From: an uncultured Methanosarcinaceae archaeon
GTDB taxonomy: Archaea > Halobacteriota > Methanosarcinia > Methanosarcinales > Methanosarcinaceae
NCBI GenBank assembly: GCA_963847185.1
Contig: CAWJYV010000008.1
Location: 1-64,000 of the forward strand
DNA: 64,000 bases
Reading direction: 5' to 3'
Part shown: one piece after another, positions 1 through 61,566 of the stretch
Layout: each line of letters opens with the position of its first letter
Numbering within the stretch: position 1 is the stretch's first letter
The notes under the pieces: model-generated
What the model was told of the DNA's origin: nothing
Databases searched by the model: none
The model's input: the letters and a program-made list of their open reading frames with translations, nothing else
Program-made: the position numbers and the translations under genes

Positions 1-174
1 CAAAGGAAATTATAGTTTCCATAATTTATAATTATTCTATTATATATTTTTAATATTTAGCCGGTTCCTGAAAGCTTATTAGTTCTACTTTTAATTCTAT
101 CTTCTAATTATTATAAATTTTGTCTAAAATTGTTAAATATCATGAAGTCTTTTATTATTTGCGGAGGATTATGT

Positions 175-543
175 ATGAGTGATTCTAATAGTGGAGAGAT
201 ATTTGACCTTAAAATTAGTAAATGGGTTCTGGGTATAGATGAGTGTGCTTTTGAGAATCTTAGTGCCATCGGGAAAAATAAATCTACGCGTCAATACCTG
301 ATCGAGTCGGTTGATAGCTGGGTAAACAAAGAAGAAGTAATTTTAACGGACAAATTCATTTCTGAAATATGTGACTTTATTAAAAGTGAAAATGAAGAAC
401 TTTATGATCGTTTGATAAAGAAATGCGCTCTAAAAGGAATTAGTGTAGGTGAAGGTATATTTGAAGCGCTAAATTTGTTGAACTGTAGAATGTTAAATGA
501 GCAACAGTGTAAGCCGGCTGGCGATGACGTCTGTGATAGATAA
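175..543 (+). CDS. hypothetical protein (~122 aa)
   Basis: ORF 130..543; GGAGGA at 163-168 precedes in-frame ATG 175; no recognisable motif. Confidence 0.6.
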   Translation: MSDSNSGEIFDLKISKWVLGIDECAFENLSAIGKNKSTRQYLIESVDSWVNKEEVILTDKFISEICDFIKSENEELYDRLIKKCALKGISVGEGIFEALNLLNCRMLNEQQCKPAGDDVCDR

Positions 544-710
544 TGTATTATAATGTATTCTGTCTACTTTAATACACTACAGTAGAGAATTTTAACAAAT
601 TTCATATTTCTTATTTTTTTGCAGTCTAAGCTTTCTTGTTATCTGAAAACAGGTTTCTTTTTTGATACATCTTTAAATAAGACTCATACATATTTTTTGT
701 TGGGATTATT

Positions 711-1280
711 ATGGACTATATCGAAATCTGGAAAGAAGTCATGCAAAGGCCTTCTGATTTTTACAGAAAGATGCCAACGACCGGTGGATATGTTGATCCG
801 CTTACCTTTGCAGCAATCAGCTATATAATATACGGGCTTTTAGCTGCACTTTTTAACCGTGGAATGATGGGAGGTATGTATGGATATGGTATGATGGGTG
901 GTGGAGGATTCAGCCTTTCCAATGCACTTATGGCTGTAATTATGATACCTATTGTAGGTATAGTCTCTATTTTTATCGGAGCTGCAATAATCCATATTAT
1001 TTATAAATTACTTGGCGGAACCGGAACTTATGAAGGCACTGTAAGGTTCGTATCTTATGCAACTGCGGTGTTGGTAATCTCCTGGATTCCTATCATTGGC
1101 TGGATTTTTGGGCTTTATGGAATATATCTTTATATCGTAGGCGGTATGTTTGTGCACAATGTAAGTATGGGAAAATCTGCAATAGCCATATTCCTGCCTA
1201 CAATACTGGTCTTCTTACTTGCCATGATTATTGCAGTTATTGTAGGAATATTCGCATCTTCCATGATTTTTTCCTCCTAA
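711..1280 (+). CDS. YIP1-family membrane protein
   Basis: about five hydrophobic segments; N-terminal 'WKEVMQRPSDFY' and 'GGTGTYEGTVR' typical of archaeal Yip1 proteins. Confidence 0.8.
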   Translation: MDYIEIWKEVMQRPSDFYRKMPTTGGYVDPLTFAAISYIIYGLLAALFNRGMMGGMYGYGMMGGGGFSLSNALMAVIMIPIVGIVSIFIGAAIIHIIYKLLGGTGTYEGTVRFVSYATAVLVISWIPIIGWIFGLYGIYLYIVGGMFVHNVSMGKSAIAIFLPTILVFLLAMIIAVIVGIFASSMIFSS

Positions 1281-1423
1281 TTCGATTATCTCCTTCTTGG
1301 AGATTATATCTCATTTTTTATATTCTGTCTATTAAGTTCTTTAGAACGCATTGCCTCAAGCTAAATATTTATATATGAGAAATTCCTTTAATTGATCTAC
1401 ACGACCAAGGCGTGATTAAGATT

Positions 1424-1495
1424 GCCAAGATGGCGGAGCGGCTACGCAATCGCCTGCAGAGCGATTCCATTCCGGTTCGAATCCGGATCTTGGCT
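1424..1495 (+). tRNA. tRNA-Cys(GCA), type I copy 1
   Basis: acceptor GCCAAGA/TCTTGGC, anticodon arm ATCGC-CTGCAGA-GCGAT, T arm TCCGG-TTCGAAT-CCGGA, U73; TTTATATA at 1368, T-run after. Confidence 0.97.
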
Positions 1496-1559
1496 TTTTT
1501 AAATACTCTATCAATCTAAAAATTTATATGCTATCAAACTCTATTAGAATATACAGACT

Positions 1560-1631
1560 GCCAAGATGGCGGAGCGGCTACGCAATCGCCTGCAGAGCGA
1601 TTCCATTCCGGTTCGAATCCGGATCTTGGCT
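1560..1631 (+). tRNA. tRNA-Cys(GCA), type I copy 2
   Basis: identical to 1424..1495; own TATA-like AATTTATATG about 30 nt upstream. Confidence 0.97.
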
Positions 1632-1712
1632 TTTCTATAAAAATATTAATCTTTTTTCGATTTTCTTTGTAGAACTTTTTGGCTCATTTCTTGTTTTATT
1701 TTTCAAATAACT

Positions 1713-1834
1713 TTAGTCCTTGAAAGAAGCATAACGCAATGAAATGGACTTCGTACCGTTGAGCTTATAGTGCAATTCCCGGAAAATCTTCAATTTCCTG
1801 TGATCCGGATCTGAACTCGATGAGTGAAACTTGG
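1713..1834 (+). repeat. REP/MITE-like palindromic repeat, degenerate long form (copy A)
   Basis: TTAGTCCTTGA...GGACTTCGT...GCAATTCCCGGAAAATCTTCAATTTCCTGTG aligns with copy C and, at its ends, with copies at 2106 and 61504. Confidence 0.65.
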
Positions 1835-1860
1835 AAAGCGTAATTAGGGAAGAACTTGAT

Positions 1861-1885
1861 TTCGGTTCTAGCCCAAATCCTGGTT
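1861..1885 (+). pseudogene. highly decayed tRNA-Cys 3' end
   Basis: TTCGGTTCTAGCCCAAATCCTGGTT matches 17/25 nt of the tRNA 3' end and follows a repeat copy, as the other fragments do. Confidence 0.45.
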
Positions 1886-1951
1886 TTCCACTTACAATTG
1901 ATCTATCTAAAAATTTATATATTATGTGCACTTTATTAGAATATGCAGACT

Positions 1952-2023
1952 GCCAAGGTGGCGGAGTGGTTACGCAATCGCCTGCAGAGCGATTTACTCC
2001 TGGTTCAAATCCGGATCTTGGCT
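1952..2023 (+). tRNA. tRNA-Cys(GCA), type II copy 1
   Basis: same anticodon arm; differs from type I in G7, D-loop, variable loop and T arm (CCTGG-TTCAAAT-CCGGA). Confidence 0.9.
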
Positions 2024-2105
2024 TCTTTAAAATTTCTTAATGTTTTAATCTTTTTACTTTTTTGTAGAATTTTTATCCATTGCCTTATCCAATTTCTTCA
2101 TCACC

Positions 2106-2170
2106 TTAGTCTGCTTGAGCGAAGCATAGCGTAGCGAAACAGACCTCGTGCTCCCGACTCGGAACTCGGG
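2106..2170 (+). repeat. REP/MITE-like palindromic repeat, short form (copy B)
   Basis: TTAGTCTGCTTGAGCGAAGC...CAGACCTCGTGCTCCCGACTCGGAACTCGGG; two hairpins; colinear with the reverse complement of 61504..61566. Confidence 0.8.
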
Positions 2171-2206
2171 AGCGACTTACTCCTGGTTCAAATCCGGATC
2201 TTGGCT
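2171..2206 (+). pseudogene. tRNA-Cys 3'-half fragment (nt 38-73)
   Basis: 35/36 identical to 1988..2023, followed by the same TCTTTAAAA trailer. Confidence 0.9.
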
Positions 2207-2445
2207 TCTTTAAAAAATTTAAATGATCTTTCTTCTTTTACAACTTTTTAATTCATTACTTTTTAACCTCTTCAGTTTTAGATTCCCTTATTAAAGTTTA
2301 ATACCAATGTTTCTCAATTTTAACATTTGCGGCTTTTAATAGCTTTCTCGAAAAGGGTATATTCAATCAATCTTGACTTTTCATCTATACTTGATCAATC
2401 TAAAGTTTTATATATTATTGAGTACTTTATTAGAATATGCAGACT

Positions 2446-2517
2446 GCCAAGGTGGCGGAGTGGTTACGCGATCGCCTGCAGAGCGATTTACTCCTGGTTC
2501 AAATCCGGATCTTGGCT
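2446..2517 (+). tRNA. tRNA-Cys(GCA), type II copy 2
   Basis: one substitution (A26G) relative to 1952..2023; homologous promoter TTTTATATA upstream. Confidence 0.9.
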
Positions 2518-2591
2518 TCTTTAAAATTTTTAAGAGTCTATCCCTTTTTCTGAACTTTTTATCCATGCTTTTATCCTATTTCTTCATCACT

Positions 2592-2702
2592 TTAGCTGCT
2601 TGAGCGAAGTACAGCGTAGCGAAGCGGACTTCGTGCTGTTACGATCACACCGCAATTCCCAGAAAATCTCCAATTTCCTGTGCTTCCGACTCGAAACTTG
2701 GG
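2592..2702 (+). repeat. REP/MITE-like palindromic repeat, long form (copy C)
   Basis: like copy B plus a ~47-nt internal segment bounded by GTGCT direct repeats (2633-2637, 2680-2684). Confidence 0.75.
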
Positions 2703-2738
2703 AACGACTTACTCCTGGCTCAAATCTGGATCCTGGCT
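2703..2738 (+). pseudogene. tRNA-Cys 3'-half fragment (decayed)
   Basis: 31/36 identical to the type II 3' half, same trailer. Confidence 0.85.
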
Positions 2739-2854
2739 TCTTTAAAATTTAAAATAATCTTTCTCTTTTTCGTAACTCCTCAATTCATTTTTTATTTCAG
2801 TTTTTATGGTTTTAGGGACTCGACTTTTATATTAGAGAAGACTAATTTTCCGAT

Positions 2855-3469
2855 ATGGACATCGATGAACTCATGCAGAGACTCTTTGAGCTTTATCCGG
2901 AAGGTTATACCGATGGCTTCAGGGAACCTTTTTTTGCGCTAATTTCTACTGTGATGTCCCACAGGACCCGGGATGACGTAACATATCCTGCAGCAAAAAG
3001 GCTTTTCGAAAAATTTTCAACTCCGGTAGACATGGTAAAAGCTGATGTTGGCGAAATTGAGGCTCTTATAAAAGATGTGGGATTTTACAGGGTCAAATCC
3101 GGAAGAATAAAGGAAATTTCTCGAATCCTTCTGGAGAAATACGATGGTAGGGTGCCTGATGATATGGATTCTCTTCTCGAACTGCCCGGAGTCGGCCGAA
3201 AAACAGCAAACTGTGTGCTTGCTCATGCCTTCTTTAAAGATGCTCTTGCGGTAGACACTCATGTTCATCGAATTTCAAACAGACTTGGACTGGTAGAGAC
3301 GAAAGATCCTGAAAAAACGGAGATTGAATTAAAAAAGATATTTCCACAGAAATACTGGAAACATATAAATCTCTTGCTTGTAAAACTAGGGCAAAATATC
3401 TGCAGACCTATTTCTCCAAGGTGTGAAGTGTGTGTCTTGAATGATATGTGTCCTAAAATTATTCTTTGA
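2855..3469 (+). CDS. nth: endonuclease III
   Basis: HhH motif LPGVGRKTA, AVDTHV, C-terminal C-x6-C-x2-C-x5-C [4Fe-4S] motif. Confidence 0.95.
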   Translation: MDIDELMQRLFELYPEGYTDGFREPFFALISTVMSHRTRDDVTYPAAKRLFEKFSTPVDMVKADVGEIEALIKDVGFYRVKSGRIKEISRILLEKYDGRVPDDMDSLLELPGVGRKTANCVLAHAFFKDALAVDTHVHRISNRLGLVETKDPEKTEIELKKIFPQKYWKHINLLLVKLGQNICRPISPRCEVCVLNDMCPKIIL

Positions 3470-3707
3470 CAGAGAGTTTCCGGTGGCCCAAAAAAACTTC
3501 GAAAACGAAATACTGAGACTTCTTTAGGGCTGGAAAAACCCTTAAGATAATACGAGATTATTTATATAAAGCTGGCATTTAGCAGGCAAAAGGGTTATGC
3601 GAATCCCTTCTACGGTGTAAATTAATTTCAAATATAAGTTATCTACAAATTATCAGTAATCTGACTAATATTTTCGTATATTACTCATCACATTTGCGAG
3701 GTCAAGT

Positions 3708-4886
3708 ATGTTTCAGATAGGAGAAGCATTAATGGGGCAGGGCGCAGAACTTGCCCATGTCGATTTGATGATAGGAGACAAGGGAGGTCCCGTAGGACAG
3801 GCTTTTGCAAACGGCCTGACTCAGCTTTCAGCAGGGCACACTCCGCTTCTGTCCGTTATCAGGCCAAACCTGCCGCCTAAACCTTCAACTCTCATTATCC
3901 CGAAGGTTACAGTAAAGAACATGGACCAGGCATCAAAAATTTTCGGGCCTGCCCAGTCAGCAGTTGCAAAGGCAGTGGCAGATTCAGTAGAAGAAGGTGT
4001 AATTTCGAAAGACCAGGTTGAAGACCTTGTCATTGTAGCAAGCGTCTTTATCCACCCTGATGCCCAGGACTACAACAAAATCTACAGATACAACTATGGT
4101 GCTACAAAACTTGCACTCAAGCGCGCTATGGAAGGCTTCCCTGACATCAACACAGTTCTCGAGGAAAGCAACAAATCCACTCATGCTATCATGGGCTTCA
4201 AAGTCATAAGACTCTGGGATCCACCCTACTTACAGATTGCTTTTGACAACCCTAACCTGGAGTTTGTGCTGTCTGCTATTTCCCAGATTCCTAACAGTGA
4301 CCATGTGATTATTGAAGCAGGCACACCTCTTATCAAACGCTATGGTGTGGATGTCATCTCGAAGATCAGGCAGGTCAGACCCGATGCCTTCATCGTGGCC
4401 GATTTAAAGACCCTTGATACCGGAAACCTTGAAGCAAGGATGGTTGCAGACGCTGCAGGCGATGCCATTGTAGTCTCTGCCCTCGCCCCGATTAACACTA
4501 TTGACAAGCTCATTGAAGAAGCTCATAAAACAGGTATCTATGCTGTCATGGACACTCTTAACCAGCATGACCCGGTTTCTGTTTTAAAGCAGCTTAAAAT
4601 CATGCCTGATGTCATCGAGCTCCACCGTGGAATTGATGTAGAAGGCACTGAACATTCCTGGGGCAATATTGCCGAGATAAAGAAGATTGCTCCAAAGGCT
4701 TTAGTTGCTGTTGCAGGTGGAGTCCGTCTCGACAAGGTGCCTGTAGCTCTGAAAGAAGGAGCTGACATTCTTGTAGTAGGACGTGCTATTACCAATGCAA
4801 AAGACGTCAGAGAGATGGCTGAGCAGTTCATTAACAGCCTTAACAAGCCTGAAATTGACCAGTTCAGAGTCATGACTGACTTCTGA
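3708..4886 (+). CDS. fae-hps: bifunctional formaldehyde-activating enzyme / 3-hexulose-6-phosphate synthase
   Basis: Fae N-terminus (IGEAL..AHVDL, FGPAQSAVAKAV) fused to HPS barrel (EAGTPLIK, ADLKTLDTG, VAGG, VGRAIT). Confidence 0.95.
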   Translation: MFQIGEALMGQGAELAHVDLMIGDKGGPVGQAFANGLTQLSAGHTPLLSVIRPNLPPKPSTLIIPKVTVKNMDQASKIFGPAQSAVAKAVADSVEEGVISKDQVEDLVIVASVFIHPDAQDYNKIYRYNYGATKLALKRAMEGFPDINTVLEESNKSTHAIMGFKVIRLWDPPYLQIAFDNPNLEFVLSAISQIPNSDHVIIEAGTPLIKRYGVDVISKIRQVRPDAFIVADLKTLDTGNLEARMVADAAGDAIVVSALAPINTIDKLIEEAHKTGIYAVMDTLNQHDPVSVLKQLKIMPDVIELHRGIDVEGTEHSWGNIAEIKKIAPKALVAVAGGVRLDKVPVALKEGADILVVGRAITNAKDVREMAEQFINSLNKPEIDQFRVMTDF

Positions 4887-5087
4887 GATGACTTAAAATT
4901 CCCTAAAAAGCTTGCCGGAAAAGATTGCCAAACAAGTTGCTAAAAAGTTTTCAATAAAATTGCTAAAAAATTGCAAGAAAATTGCAAGAAAATAAAGTTT
5001 TGCAAACCTTCCGGCAGCAATCTATCAGAAAGCGTTGAAATTCGCGCTTTCTCTTCATTTCTTTTTCATCTTTCAGGAGGGGATTTC

Positions 5088-15132: not shown

Positions 15133-15461
15133 ATAATGATCTTCCTGCTGAGTTTTGAGGATGGATAAAAAGATAATTTATACTTCTTTGATAATCTGTA
15201 CTTTTTCTAATTCTGTCACCTGATGCAAGAATATAATACTTTTCTTGAATTATTTTAACCTTCTATAAGAAAGTGATCTTTGCTTAATAAGCCTTTGAGT
15301 TTCTCTACTTAAAAATATAAAGCGGATTGAGTTAGGTGAATTAGAATTCTCTGGATATAAGTGAATTGAATATAAAAAGGGCAAAATCCAAAACTGAGAC
15401 AACATATAATTATAAATATGGAGATAAATCATTGAAACCGATTCAAAAGCAGATTTCTTGA

Positions 15462-15536
15462 TAGCGGGGGATGGATTCGAACCATCGGTCTACGGGTTAT
15501 GAGCCCGTCGGGATCTCCTGGCTACCCCACCCCGCT
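15462..15536 (-). tRNA. initiator tRNA-Met(CAT) copy 2
   Basis: A1-U72, anticodon arm ACGGG-CTCATAA-CCCGT with three G-C pairs, TTCGAAT loop. Confidence 0.96.
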
Positions 15537-15583
15537 AAAGCGTTGACGTACTAATTGAGAAAACTGATCTAAAAAAGTTTTCA

Positions 15584-15658
15584 TAGCGGGGGATGGATTC
15601 GAACCATCGGTCTACGGGTTATGAGCCCGTCGGGATCTCCTGGCTACCCCACCCCGCT
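15584..15658 (-). tRNA. initiator tRNA-Met(CAT) copy 1
   Basis: identical to 15462..15536; GAAAAGTATATAAAC promoter near 15720-15734 on the minus strand. Confidence 0.96.
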
Positions 15659-15901
15659 ACAGGGTCTTTATAGATCAGGCCTCTTTGCCTGAGACAGCTA
15701 TCAGAACATGATAACGATAGTTTATATACTTTTCGCCATGTCTTTTATTCTCTAGCATTAAGGAAATTAAAAATTTATTAATAGAGTTCATTAACTTTAT
15801 TATAATTTGTCAGATTTTTTTGCTATCTTTCATATCTGTTATTTTCCCAGCTTAGTAGTTTTCAGGAAATTTATTTGAAATCCTGAGTCTTAAAGCATAT
15901 T

Positions 15902-61503: not shown

Positions 61504-61566
61504 CCCGAGTTTCGCTTCGGGAGCACGAAGTCCTTTTCCCTCGCTTCGCTCGCTCAAGAGGACTAA
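61504..61566 (-). repeat. REP/MITE-like palindromic repeat (copy D)
   Basis: reverse complement TTAGTCCTCTTGAGCGAGCGAAGCGAGGGAAAAGGACTTCGTGCTCCCGAAGCGAAACTCGGG. Confidence 0.85.

Follow-up and report, generated by a model that had tools for sequence, protein, structure and literature searches.

A dispersed hairpin repeat joined to tRNA-Cys 3' pieces in a Methanosarcinaceae tRNA gene array, a probable by-product of array evolution

Introduction

Unequal crossing-over and gene conversion shape tandem arrays of tRNA genes and leave truncated pseudo-copies behind. The tRNA-Cys locus described here is like such arrays in its head-to-tail order, in a copy number that varies between close species (two to six genes), in the partial copies at its unit borders, and in the likeness of the copies within a genome. 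It is unlike them in that the unit border fuses tRNA sequence to an unrelated dispersed repeat, and this chimeric joint has long been carried across species.

Archaeal tyrosine integrases of the SSV1, pNOB8, and pT26-2 types give attL and attR sites that duplicate 3' parts of tRNA genes (PMC8371274), and our locus shares with these sites an intact gene accompanied by a 3' partial direct repeat from in or near the anticodon loop. However, it has neither an element nor an integrase, the spacing is <230 nt, and the homology runs into the trailers. For Caldiarchaeum, a mobile element is reported to scatter tRNA fragments, with a 5' piece 1.8 kb off and recombinase-coding DNA in between (PMC3293823); an orphan fragment lying close to a complete gene for its tRNA is also found here, but it is a 3' piece, and the gap of 183 to 221 nt is noncoding. 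The split tRNA genes known from Nanoarchaeum and Caldivirga (PMC3218864 and PMC4033280) resemble our locus in a 3' half nominally starting from 37/38 and in GC-rich, helix-capable sequence before it, whereas here a 5' half gene is lacking and intact genes of the same tRNA are present. The repeat itself, called R below, is similar to the bacterial REP/BIME/REPIN repeats (PMC3116915) in having dozens of dispersed modular hairpin copies, often in small arrays, but it differs in its archaeal host and in that no RAYT-like gene flanked by the repeats was found.

Results

The window is the whole stretch of DNA analyzed, 64,000 nt from an uncultured Methanosarcinaceae archaeon. Four of the ten tRNA-Cys genes of the whole genome are located, intact, in an array at 1424-2517 (Table 1). 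In pairwise comparison, copies 1 and 2 showed no differences, and copies 3 and 4 differed at 1 of 72 positions. A first-pass annotation, made from the sequence alone, had described three modules, each with a spacer, a TTAG-led repeat, and a tRNA-Cys 3' piece, and ARAGORN, Rfam, repeat, and nhmmer searches confirmed them: copies 2, 3, and 4 are followed by a T-rich trailer (S), the hairpin repeat R, and a 3' piece, in that order. The repeat search gave a promoter-plus-tRNA family of 131 nt with four copies, the starts of which are spaced by 136, 392, and 494 nt, as well as an 81-nt family with five copies that begin at the tRNA sequence GAGCGA and represent three genes (1595, 1987, and 2481) and two orphan pieces (2170 and 2702). 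The units of the array are collinear, including their flanks, on the basis of repeat families D1 to D5, the six-module alignment (see below), and trailer homology. In other species, 20 of 20 singleton tRNA-Cys loci likewise have the TATA-like box of copy 2 upstream of the gene. The nth gene is the conserved right-hand neighbor of the array and was found at the orthologous locus in relatives. An ORF scan gave no ORF of >76 aa in 1500-2850, and tRNA was the sole Rfam family matched in 1-5000 (E values up to 1) and, at the gathering score, in the whole window.

Table 1. Features of the tRNA-Cys array and its right-hand neighbor
Feature	Positions	Strand	Evidence
TATA-like box, copy 1	1368-1375	+	Sequence reading, repeat family D6; putative promoter
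tRNA-Cys(GCA), type 1, copy 1 (T1a)	1424-1495	+	ARAGORN, Rfam (54.6 bits)
TATA-like box, copy 2	1523-1530	+	~37 nt before gene; repeat families D1/D3; putative promoter
tRNA-Cys(GCA), type 1, copy 2 (T1b)	1560-1631	+	ARAGORN, Rfam; same as copy 1
T-rich trailer S, module 2	1632-1711	+	Versus module 3 trailer, z 4.2, 0/200 shuffles; six-module alignment
R, module 2, long form carrying additional tail units	1712-1849	+	nhmmer (1714-1816)
Decayed 3' piece, module 2, type 1-like	1850-1887	+	Placed by module and piece alignments
TATA-like box, copy 3	1914-1921	+	Sequence reading, repeat family D1; putative function
tRNA-Cys(GCA), type 2, copy 3 (T2a)	1952-2023	+	ARAGORN, Rfam (53.8 bits)
Trailer S, module 3	2024-2105	+	Repeat family D5; trailer homology; six-module alignment
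R, short form, module 3	2106-2170	+	nhmmer (2106-2169); G2170 fits tRNA too
3' piece t3, gene positions 38-73	2171-2206	+	36/37 versus copy 3, counted from 2170
Second trailer S copy, behind t3	2207-2279	+	Versus intact-gene trailers, z 3.0 and 4.4; versus post-t4 trailer, z 6.9
Possible additional tRNA 3' end, decayed, ahead of copy 4 promoter	2362-2378	+	Position only; repeat family D3
TATA-like box, copy 4	2407-2414	+	Sequence reading, repeat family D1; putative function
tRNA-Cys(GCA), type 2, copy 4 (T2b)	2446-2517	+	ARAGORN, Rfam (53.5 bits)
Trailer S, module 4	2518-2590	+	Repeat family D5; trailer homology; six-module alignment
R, long form, module 4	2591-2702	+	nhmmer (2596-2702)
3' piece t4	2703-2738	+	31/36 by hand count; score 54; seven-piece alignment
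Trailer S behind t4	2739-2810	+	Versus copy 4 trailer, z 7.1
TTTAG and short repeat-like remnant	2811-2824	+	Downstream of post-t4 trailer, before nth TATA box; by eye
nth, endonuclease III gene	2855-3469	+	HhH-GPD, HHH, and EndIII_4Fe-2S domains

Trailer S is 80, 82, and 73 nt long in modules 2, 3, and 4, respectively, and contains a TATA-like block about 35 to 45 nt before the repeat that is conserved in many species. The trailer behind a piece was homologous to that behind a gene in five of six comparisons (z, 3.0 to 7.1; score reached in at most 1 of 200 shuffles), and the comparison of 2024-2105 with 2739-2830 was not significant (z, 1.6; score reached in 16 of 200 shuffles). Because the trailers of gene and piece are homologous, the duplicated unit consists of the 3' half, S, and R and is not an attachment core.

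R begins with TTAG or TTTAG at 1712, 2106, and 2591. The R of module 2 is collinear with that of module 4 over 108 nt (z, 28), and the R of module 3 has relatives at 86% to 91% on other contigs. The family is dispersed and genus-wide, with 64 loci in this genome according to nhmmer; its copies are modular, hairpin-forming, and often in small arrays, and the first hairpin occurs in three arm-compensated variants (GTCCT/AGGAC, GTCTG/CAGAC, and GTCCG/CGGAC). Three of the 64 loci adjoin a tRNA piece, all in this array; none of the 61 loci outside it does, and only one of these is within 200 nt of any tRNA. Six matches to the Y1 (RAYT-type) transposase family PF01797 were located at four places, none adjoining R and the nearest about 3 kb away. 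An Rfam search over five R loci on contig C9 gave only a sub-threshold match to sRNA162, outside the repeats, and a further, decayed repeat unit within 2270-2400 was unsupported (z, 0.7 and -0.9). Full-text literature searches found no published description of R, and as far as they reach, the family is apparently uncatalogued. The ends of R coincide with several rearrangement breakpoints.

The identities reported in the first-pass annotation for the two clear pieces, 35/36 and 31/36, were reproduced, and the third, 17/25, was recounted as 18/25. Counted from 2171, t3 has 35 of 36 positions in common with the 3' part of copy 3; t4 gave 32/37 when hand counted from 2702 and 27/30 over 2709-2738 in a sequence search. 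The T arm is intact in both, and a T-rich trailer is present behind both. On its own evidence, the module 2 piece is a weak match (1859-1883 to type 1 tRNA positions 46-70; 18/25; z, 2.8; score reached in 9 of 300 shuffles). At the orthologous position, however, a better-preserved piece is found in the genomes G040 and G002 (scores of 49 and 36; shuffle maximum, 30). R stands immediately 5' of each piece, and there is no promoter of its own directly in front. The possible tRNA end at 2362-2378 scored 15, no better than shuffled sequences. A tRNA remnant considered right before the nth TATA box was not supported, and the stretch appeared by eye to be more repeat-like. An orphan tRNA-Cys 5' half was not found in the genome (99.8% complete): the best orphan matches were 12 to 16 nt (E value, 4.6), and all 5'-half matches with E values below 1 lie within intact tRNA-Cys genes.

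In an alignment of seven modules from five genomes, position 43 is T in all five genes and C in six of the seven pieces, including t3 (base 2176) and t4 (base 2708), the exception being the G002 piece, which has T. The remainder of each piece carries gene-specific bases of the neighboring gene of its own genome. Module 2 pieces are type 1-like and t3 and t4 are type 2-like, and this mixture requires either later conversion or separate events. The module 2 pieces are decayed and differ between species; t3 and the pieces of G042 and G034 are one or two changes from the local gene, a closeness that either conversion or selection could explain.

In module 3, CTCCCGA (2151-2157) pairs with TCGGGAG (2166-2172), forming a terminal hairpin with an 8-bp stem in the predicted fold. 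The stem enters the tRNA-like part by 2 nt, as had been noted in the first-pass annotation for the last hairpin of the repeat, but the corresponding hairpin in module 4 is degenerate. A piece start at 37/38, the other boundary claim made there, stands only if G2170 is assigned to R. Since G2170 is compatible with both R and tRNA and AGCGA (2171-2175) is also like a tail unit of R, the breakpoint may lie anywhere from 36/37 to 42/43. AGCGA occurs on either side of the joint and may have guided its formation as a microhomology. Such microhomology is available, as (A)AGCG follows 13 of 93 repeat tail ends, but with so few such ends and a length of just 5 nt it would have been a weak guide. R and piece together folded no better than shuffled sequences in the three modules (z, -0.57, +0.52, and -0.48).

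At least four Methanosarcina species besides this one share the joint between R and the piece (five with the borderline G054), and the joint was seen only within one tRNA-Cys/nth array lineage. The scenario that the first-pass annotation had set against its own proposals, a fusion present only here, thus fails in that point, whereas its other part, a microhomology joint followed by tandem duplication, agrees with the relatives. When 59 genomes of the genus were searched with an 88-nt query across the joint, joint-spanning matches among the matches listed were limited to G000 (two), G034, and G042; G040 and G002 have decayed joints that show up in the locus comparison and in the six-module alignment. 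In the latter, the three modules of this genome and those of G040, G002, and G054 are collinear from trailer to repeat, joint, and piece. The G042 locus reads T1b-S-R-piece-S-R-nth and contains a 150-nt direct repeat with a period of 152 nt and 91% identity. Among singleton type 2 tRNA-Cys loci of other species, 7 of 20 have a same-strand R 86 to 153 nt downstream and no piece. The 30 orthologous loci (29 relatives and this genome) have two to six tRNA-Cys genes each, and G040 has four type 2 copies with a 137-nt period. A tree of the single gene nth, covering 32 of the 59 genomes, has five clear and four borderline joint carriers in one of its two main clades (17 rows), and the remaining 15 rows have no joint; this distribution fits one old origin.

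Discussion

The modules probably go back to one old illegitimate joint, possibly formed at the AGCGA microhomology, which unequal crossing-over and gene conversion then spread and kept renewing. In our best reading, the pieces are an ordinary by-product of gene-array evolution, neither a new mobile element nor a split tRNA. We infer what kind of event founded the modules, which direction it took, and that the modules lack function. The starting state, old in the genus, would have been a tRNA-Cys gene followed by the T-rich trailer S and a resident R. Once, in the ancestor of one Methanosarcina clade, illegitimate recombination would have fused the 3' end of R to tRNA-Cys at position ~37 to 42, in the simplest form by duplicating in tandem the ~150 nt that comprise the tRNA 3' half, S, and R, to yield gene-S-R-piece-S-R; a repair copy from a paralogous singleton locus, instead of duplication in place, could also have been the founding event. 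After a founding duplication, the array would have held three kinds of direct repeat (tRNA or piece, S, and R), and unequal homologous crossing-over and gene conversion may have multiplied, deleted, and reshuffled the units into three modules of promoter, tRNA, S, R, and piece, with most of each piece repeatedly overwritten by the sequence of the neighboring live gene. Such concerted evolution would explain why t3, despite the age of the joint, still matches the gene at 36 of 37 positions, but selection acting on the piece would leave much the same picture. The first-pass annotation had likewise suggested a later amplification of the fusion together with the gene, which is supported, and a lack of selection; the pieces may well be unselected, as the one in module 2 decays and differs between species.

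Mobile elements were also considered as the source of the pieces. It is very improbable that a tyrosine-integrase element entered the tRNA-Cys anticodon loop, was mostly deleted, and left the pieces as attR-type remnants, its scar being duplicated with the gene. The classical picture of such a scar is indeed an intact gene with a 3' partial direct repeat starting in the anticodon loop, and orphan tRNA-Leu 3' pieces starting at positions 33 to 36 exist in this genome; no integrase was found among seven ORFs scanned near the latter on contig C2, so they provide no clean att-scar control. The att scar put forward in the first-pass annotation is, however, largely refuted by the trailer homology beyond the tRNA on both sides, which an att core would not give, and there is no cargo between gene and piece, the gap being just 183 to 221 nt in a region devoid of ORFs of >76 aa. 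The "element" would consist of the trailer and a host repeat that trails tRNA-Cys without a piece in 7 of the 20 singleton loci of other species, and G042 has a plain 152-nt tandem repeat. Alternatively, R could be a mobile mini-element that repeatedly enters or recombines at tRNA anticodon loops, with the modules as independent captures. This would accommodate the breakpoints at repeat ends (the joint of R and piece, the X-R boundary on contig C9, where promoter, tRNA, and trailer are absent, and the split array of G034) and the type 1-like pieces in module 2 versus type 2-like ones in modules 3 and 4. We nevertheless regard it as highly unlikely: none of the 61 R loci beyond the array contacts a tRNA piece, contrary to the targeting or capture of tRNA halves suggested in the first-pass annotation, no tRNA besides tRNA-Cys is involved, and Y1 transposase genes are present but not beside an R locus. 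Moreover, all joints are collinear and six of seven have the nongene C43, whereas independent events would copy the T of the gene.

Expression and use of R and piece, as a split or trans-spliced tRNA-Cys 3' half, as a 3' exon behind a giant 37/38 "intron," or as a chimeric small RNA, would be in line with the nominal 37/38 position of the joint, the intact T arm and T-rich trailer kept in modules 3 and 4, the TATA-like block conserved in trailer S of many species, and the small divergence of pieces from the live gene in three genomes. It is most unlikely, nonetheless, as the orphan 5' half that the first-pass annotation had envisaged is absent from the genome, four intact genes lie alongside (ten genome-wide), and the fold of R and piece has no gain over shuffles. 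By hand reading, the four bases at 2165-2168, just ahead of a putative 3' bulge, can pair with tRNA positions 32-35 at only two of four positions, which makes a bulge-helix-bulge in cis unlikely, and for one in trans the genome offers no partner. C43 would create a mismatch in the anticodon stem, and the module 2 piece appears to decay freely, with 18/25 in this genome and another state in each species. We also give little credence to transcription of R and piece from the TATA-like block of trailer S into a chimeric RNA of repeat and tRNA-Cys 3' half that ends at the T-rich terminator of the tRNA, in which case use, and not only passive conversion, would explain why pieces have stayed close to the live gene in three species; such an RNA might, for example, regulate in the manner of tRNA fragments or serve as a decoy of enzymes that bind tRNA-Cys. 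The matching sequencing runs were metagenomes only, with a word share of 0.10 or less; in four of them, short contigs of related organisms cover the tRNA genes, with one spanning 1741-1996 and one a copy of the dispersed repeat.

A 3' half "at 37/38" beside a palindrome can pass for a split tRNA, a tRNA-capturing element, or the scar of an integrase and should be read with caution; here, one illegitimate joint and ordinary array dynamics would account for it. Under this single-joint origin, the array would also be an example of concerted evolution that halts at a nonhomologous border, with the joint-side base ancestral and the rest tracking the neighboring gene. Two by-products may be worth more, namely, the genus-wide hairpin repeat family and the unusually large set of ten tRNA-Cys genes.

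Organization of the tRNA-Cys array

The source genome (G000) is a Methanosarcina genome of 4.04 Mb in 10 contigs, and the window opens at G000:C8:1. The array of four tRNA-Cys(GCA) genes is flanked by a Yip1-domain membrane protein gene and nth, and no ORF longer than 76 amino acids was found at 1500-2850. Copies 1 and 2 (type 1) show no differences, and copies 3 and 4, one base apart, together form a second type (type 2). A TATA-like box is located ~37-39 nt upstream of copies 2, 3, and 4, within a 131-nt repeated block.

Features of the tRNA-Cys array in the window
Feature	Position	Remarks
Yip1-domain membrane protein gene	711-1280	one flank of the array
tRNA-Cys(GCA) copy 1	1424-1495	type 1
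tRNA-Cys(GCA) copy 2	1560-1631	type 1
tRNA-Cys 3' piece of module 2	~1850-1887	decayed; 18/25 over 1859-1883, z 2.8; score reached by 9/300 shuffles
tRNA-Cys(GCA) copy 3	1952-2023	type 2
tRNA-Cys 3' piece t3	2170-2206	36/37 versus copy 3
tRNA-Cys(GCA) copy 4	2446-2517	type 2
tRNA-Cys 3' piece t4	2702-2738	32/37 by hand count; score 54
nth (endonuclease III)	2855-3469	other flank; followed by fae-hps

Copies 2, 3, and 4 are each followed by a T-rich trailer (S; 80, 82, and 73 nt, respectively), a hairpin repeat (R) beginning with TTAG/TTTAG at 1712, 2106, and 2591, and a tRNA-Cys 3' piece (t). The promoter-tRNA-R-3' piece layout described in the first-pass annotation is borne out for modules 2, 3, and 4, the decayed piece of module 2 being persuasive only with its orthologues. 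Shuffle-tested comparisons revealed an additional copy of S 3' of both t3 and t4: 2207-2279 matched the trailers of copies 3 and 4 (z 3.0 and 4.4), 2739-2798 matched that of copy 4 (z 7.1), and the two post-piece trailers matched each other (z 6.9); the comparison of 2024-2105 with 2739-2830 was not significant (z 1.6). Because S recurs behind each piece, the duplicated unit is the 3' half together with S and R, not the bare tRNA core. R in module 2 aligns collinearly with R in module 4 along 108 nt (z 28), and module 3 has a short form. Folding of R plus the piece was no better than that of shuffled sequence (z -0.57, +0.52, and -0.48).

R is a dispersed repeat family

In G000, searching by BLAST and with an iterated nhmmer profile gave 92 to 93 matches to R; after merging, these represent 64 loci spread over 9 of the 10 contigs. 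Outside the array, the window also holds a copy at 61505-61566 on the minus strand. The copies are modular. A first hairpin is followed, in some copies, by a middle part containing two more hairpins, and then by a last short hairpin ending in CTCGGG. They are closed by 14-nt tail units in variable number, and small arrays are frequent. The first hairpin varies on both arms in step (GTCCT/AGGAC, GTCTG/CAGAC, and GTCCG/CGGAC). Query stretches containing R were matched in all 59 genus genomes. No Rfam family covers R, and no description of the family was found in the literature searched.

The locus in related genomes

The comparison covers 29 orthologous loci of relatives in their entirety, as well as those of G034 and G042. 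In 25 of the 29, nth is preceded by two type-1 genes only, without a same-strand R. Module 2 followed by type-2 genes is present in G040 (four copies), G002 (one), and G054 (one), and alignment showed the modules of these three genomes to be collinear with all three window modules across the joint between R and t. A search with 88 nt spanning the joint against 59 genomes added at least two species, G042 and G034, among the 150 of 643 matches listed. In G042, the order T1b-S-R-t-S-R-nth (T1a and T1b being the two type-1 genes) is a plain 150-nt tandem duplication with a period of 152 and 91% identity. In G034, R-t-S-nth and T1a-T1b-S-R occupy separate contigs. The G034 array is split between loci L061 (G034:C153) and L073 (G034:C222) with R copies at both breakpoints; the nth-side contig carries three R copies, the piece, and the trailer, and the T1a-T1b-trailer-R stretch adjoins genes read as putative gatC/gatA.

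Aligned at the joint, six of seven pieces have C in place of T43, whereas T43 is present in all five genes compared. Past position 43, the pieces carry the bases of the neighboring gene of their own genome, type-1b-like in G042 and G034 and type-2-like in window modules 3 and 4. In a tree built from nth alone, with 32 loci, all carriers (five clear and four borderline) fall within one of two main clades, and the other 15 rows contain no carriers.

Another 20 species carry the type-2 gene as a singleton at a different locus. In 7 of them a same-strand R, but no piece, follows 86 to 153 nt downstream; some of the remaining loci have, by eye, a repeat-like start only. At G000:C9:1740-1960 and 4000-4300 (locus L059), a segment X abuts R directly, and at the corresponding site other species have a singleton type-2 promoter-tRNA-trailer between X and R. 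X plus R is itself a multicopy composite in G054 and G040, and the tRNA unit therefore falls precisely on a border between modules of a larger repeat.

Origin of the modules

The first-pass annotation had proposed that R targets or captures tRNA 3' halves, that the pieces are att scars, or that they are a source of chimeric RNAs joining the repeat to a tRNA half. Recurrent targeting fails on two counts, the absence of other R-tRNA joints in G000 and the C43 shared by six of the seven pieces. Three of the 64 R loci, all in this array, follow a tRNA at a distance of 90 nt or less, and one further locus is 190 nt from a tRNA-Ile. When all 64 tRNAs were compared with the genome, 11 partial matches fell outside tRNA genes, and 2170-2206 alone contacts R; the remainder, mostly tRNA-Leu 3' pieces, are >6 kb from any R. 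(At the word size of this search t4 was absent; it was recovered in the tRNA-Cys search.) Set against the defining features of integrase att sites at tRNA genes, as given in PMC8371274, the att-scar explanation also fails: no element is present between gene and piece, and the homology of the trailers behind both extends past the tRNA. A split tRNA or giant intron fails as well, since neither tRNA-Cys type has an orphan 5' half in G000, where all matches with E <1 lie inside intact genes, and hand reading found no bulge-helix-bulge. A less likely reading is that R plus the piece would give rise to a chimeric small RNA. S holds a conserved TATA-like block, which could be a terminator region or a promoter for R. 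It occurs in tRNA-Cys trailers of many species, ~35 to 45 nt upstream of R, as the run TTTGAATAAGTTTTTAAT in loci L032, L034, and L038 and partly altered in others, including window 2060-2080.

The modules are partial gene copies bordering tandemly duplicated tRNA units, an already known phenomenon, and most probably behave as any duplication scar does, unlike att sites, split tRNAs, or MITE insertions. Their distinguishing feature is a border that joins tRNA sequence to a dispersed repeat, a fusion carried in several species. Directly established are a single joint type, collinear units, homology beyond the tRNA, a two-unit form, varying unit counts, and a non-gene base near the joint. We infer that one illegitimate event fused the end of R to about position 37 to 42 of a tRNA-Cys copy. 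AGCGA occurs on both sides of the joint (tRNA positions 38 to 42), so that the breakpoint is not assignable to 37/38, where it had been placed; (A)AGCG continues 13 of 93 repeat tail ends. The founding joint would fit microhomology at AGCGA. Alternatively, a gene break could have been repaired by copying a paralogous gene-S-R locus, with return at microhomology; such a repair copy and in-place duplication are equally possible.

After the fusion, unequal crossing-over and conversion, whether of a gene with a piece, among trailers, or among repeats, would account for the three window modules, the four 137-nt type-2 units of G040, and module loss in some relatives. Conversion would refresh a piece up to, but never across, the nonhomologous border, leaving C43 in place and producing the graded decay. 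In G040, the four type-2 genes (L002, 2157-2639) have a 137-nt period with no R between them, and a 136-nt environmental contig repeats the G040 gene-13 nt-promoter-gene joint.

Other tRNA genes and repeats

The orphan tRNA-Leu pieces, far from any R, look like true att-type remnants. Those at G000:C2:4260-4310, C2:8989-9062, C6:16065-16115, and C1:197667-197704 begin at tRNA positions 33 to 36, and one of them, at 51 nt, shows 100% identity to its gene; a scan of seven ORFs in C2:1-14000 turned up no integrase. Ten of the 64 tRNAs of G000 are tRNA-Cys(GCA) genes, and sites outside the array include G000:C1:147043-148817 (L074), C1:218650, and C2:49490. Immediately downstream of a cluster of four divergent tRNA-Cys genes lies a gene scoring as SepCysS (TIGR02539, 413 bits), and an O-acetylhomoserine sulfhydrylase-like gene comes next. 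On the minus strand of the window, at 15460-15659, tRNA-Met(CAT) genes form a tandem pair separated by 46 nt. A second intergenic repeat, in which a G-rich run containing GGGG blocks precedes A/T-rich sequence and a TATA-like box, is present at G000:C9:1990-2100, 2370-2490, and 4350-4480, and several other species have this GGGG-block unit downstream of their singleton tRNA-Cys.
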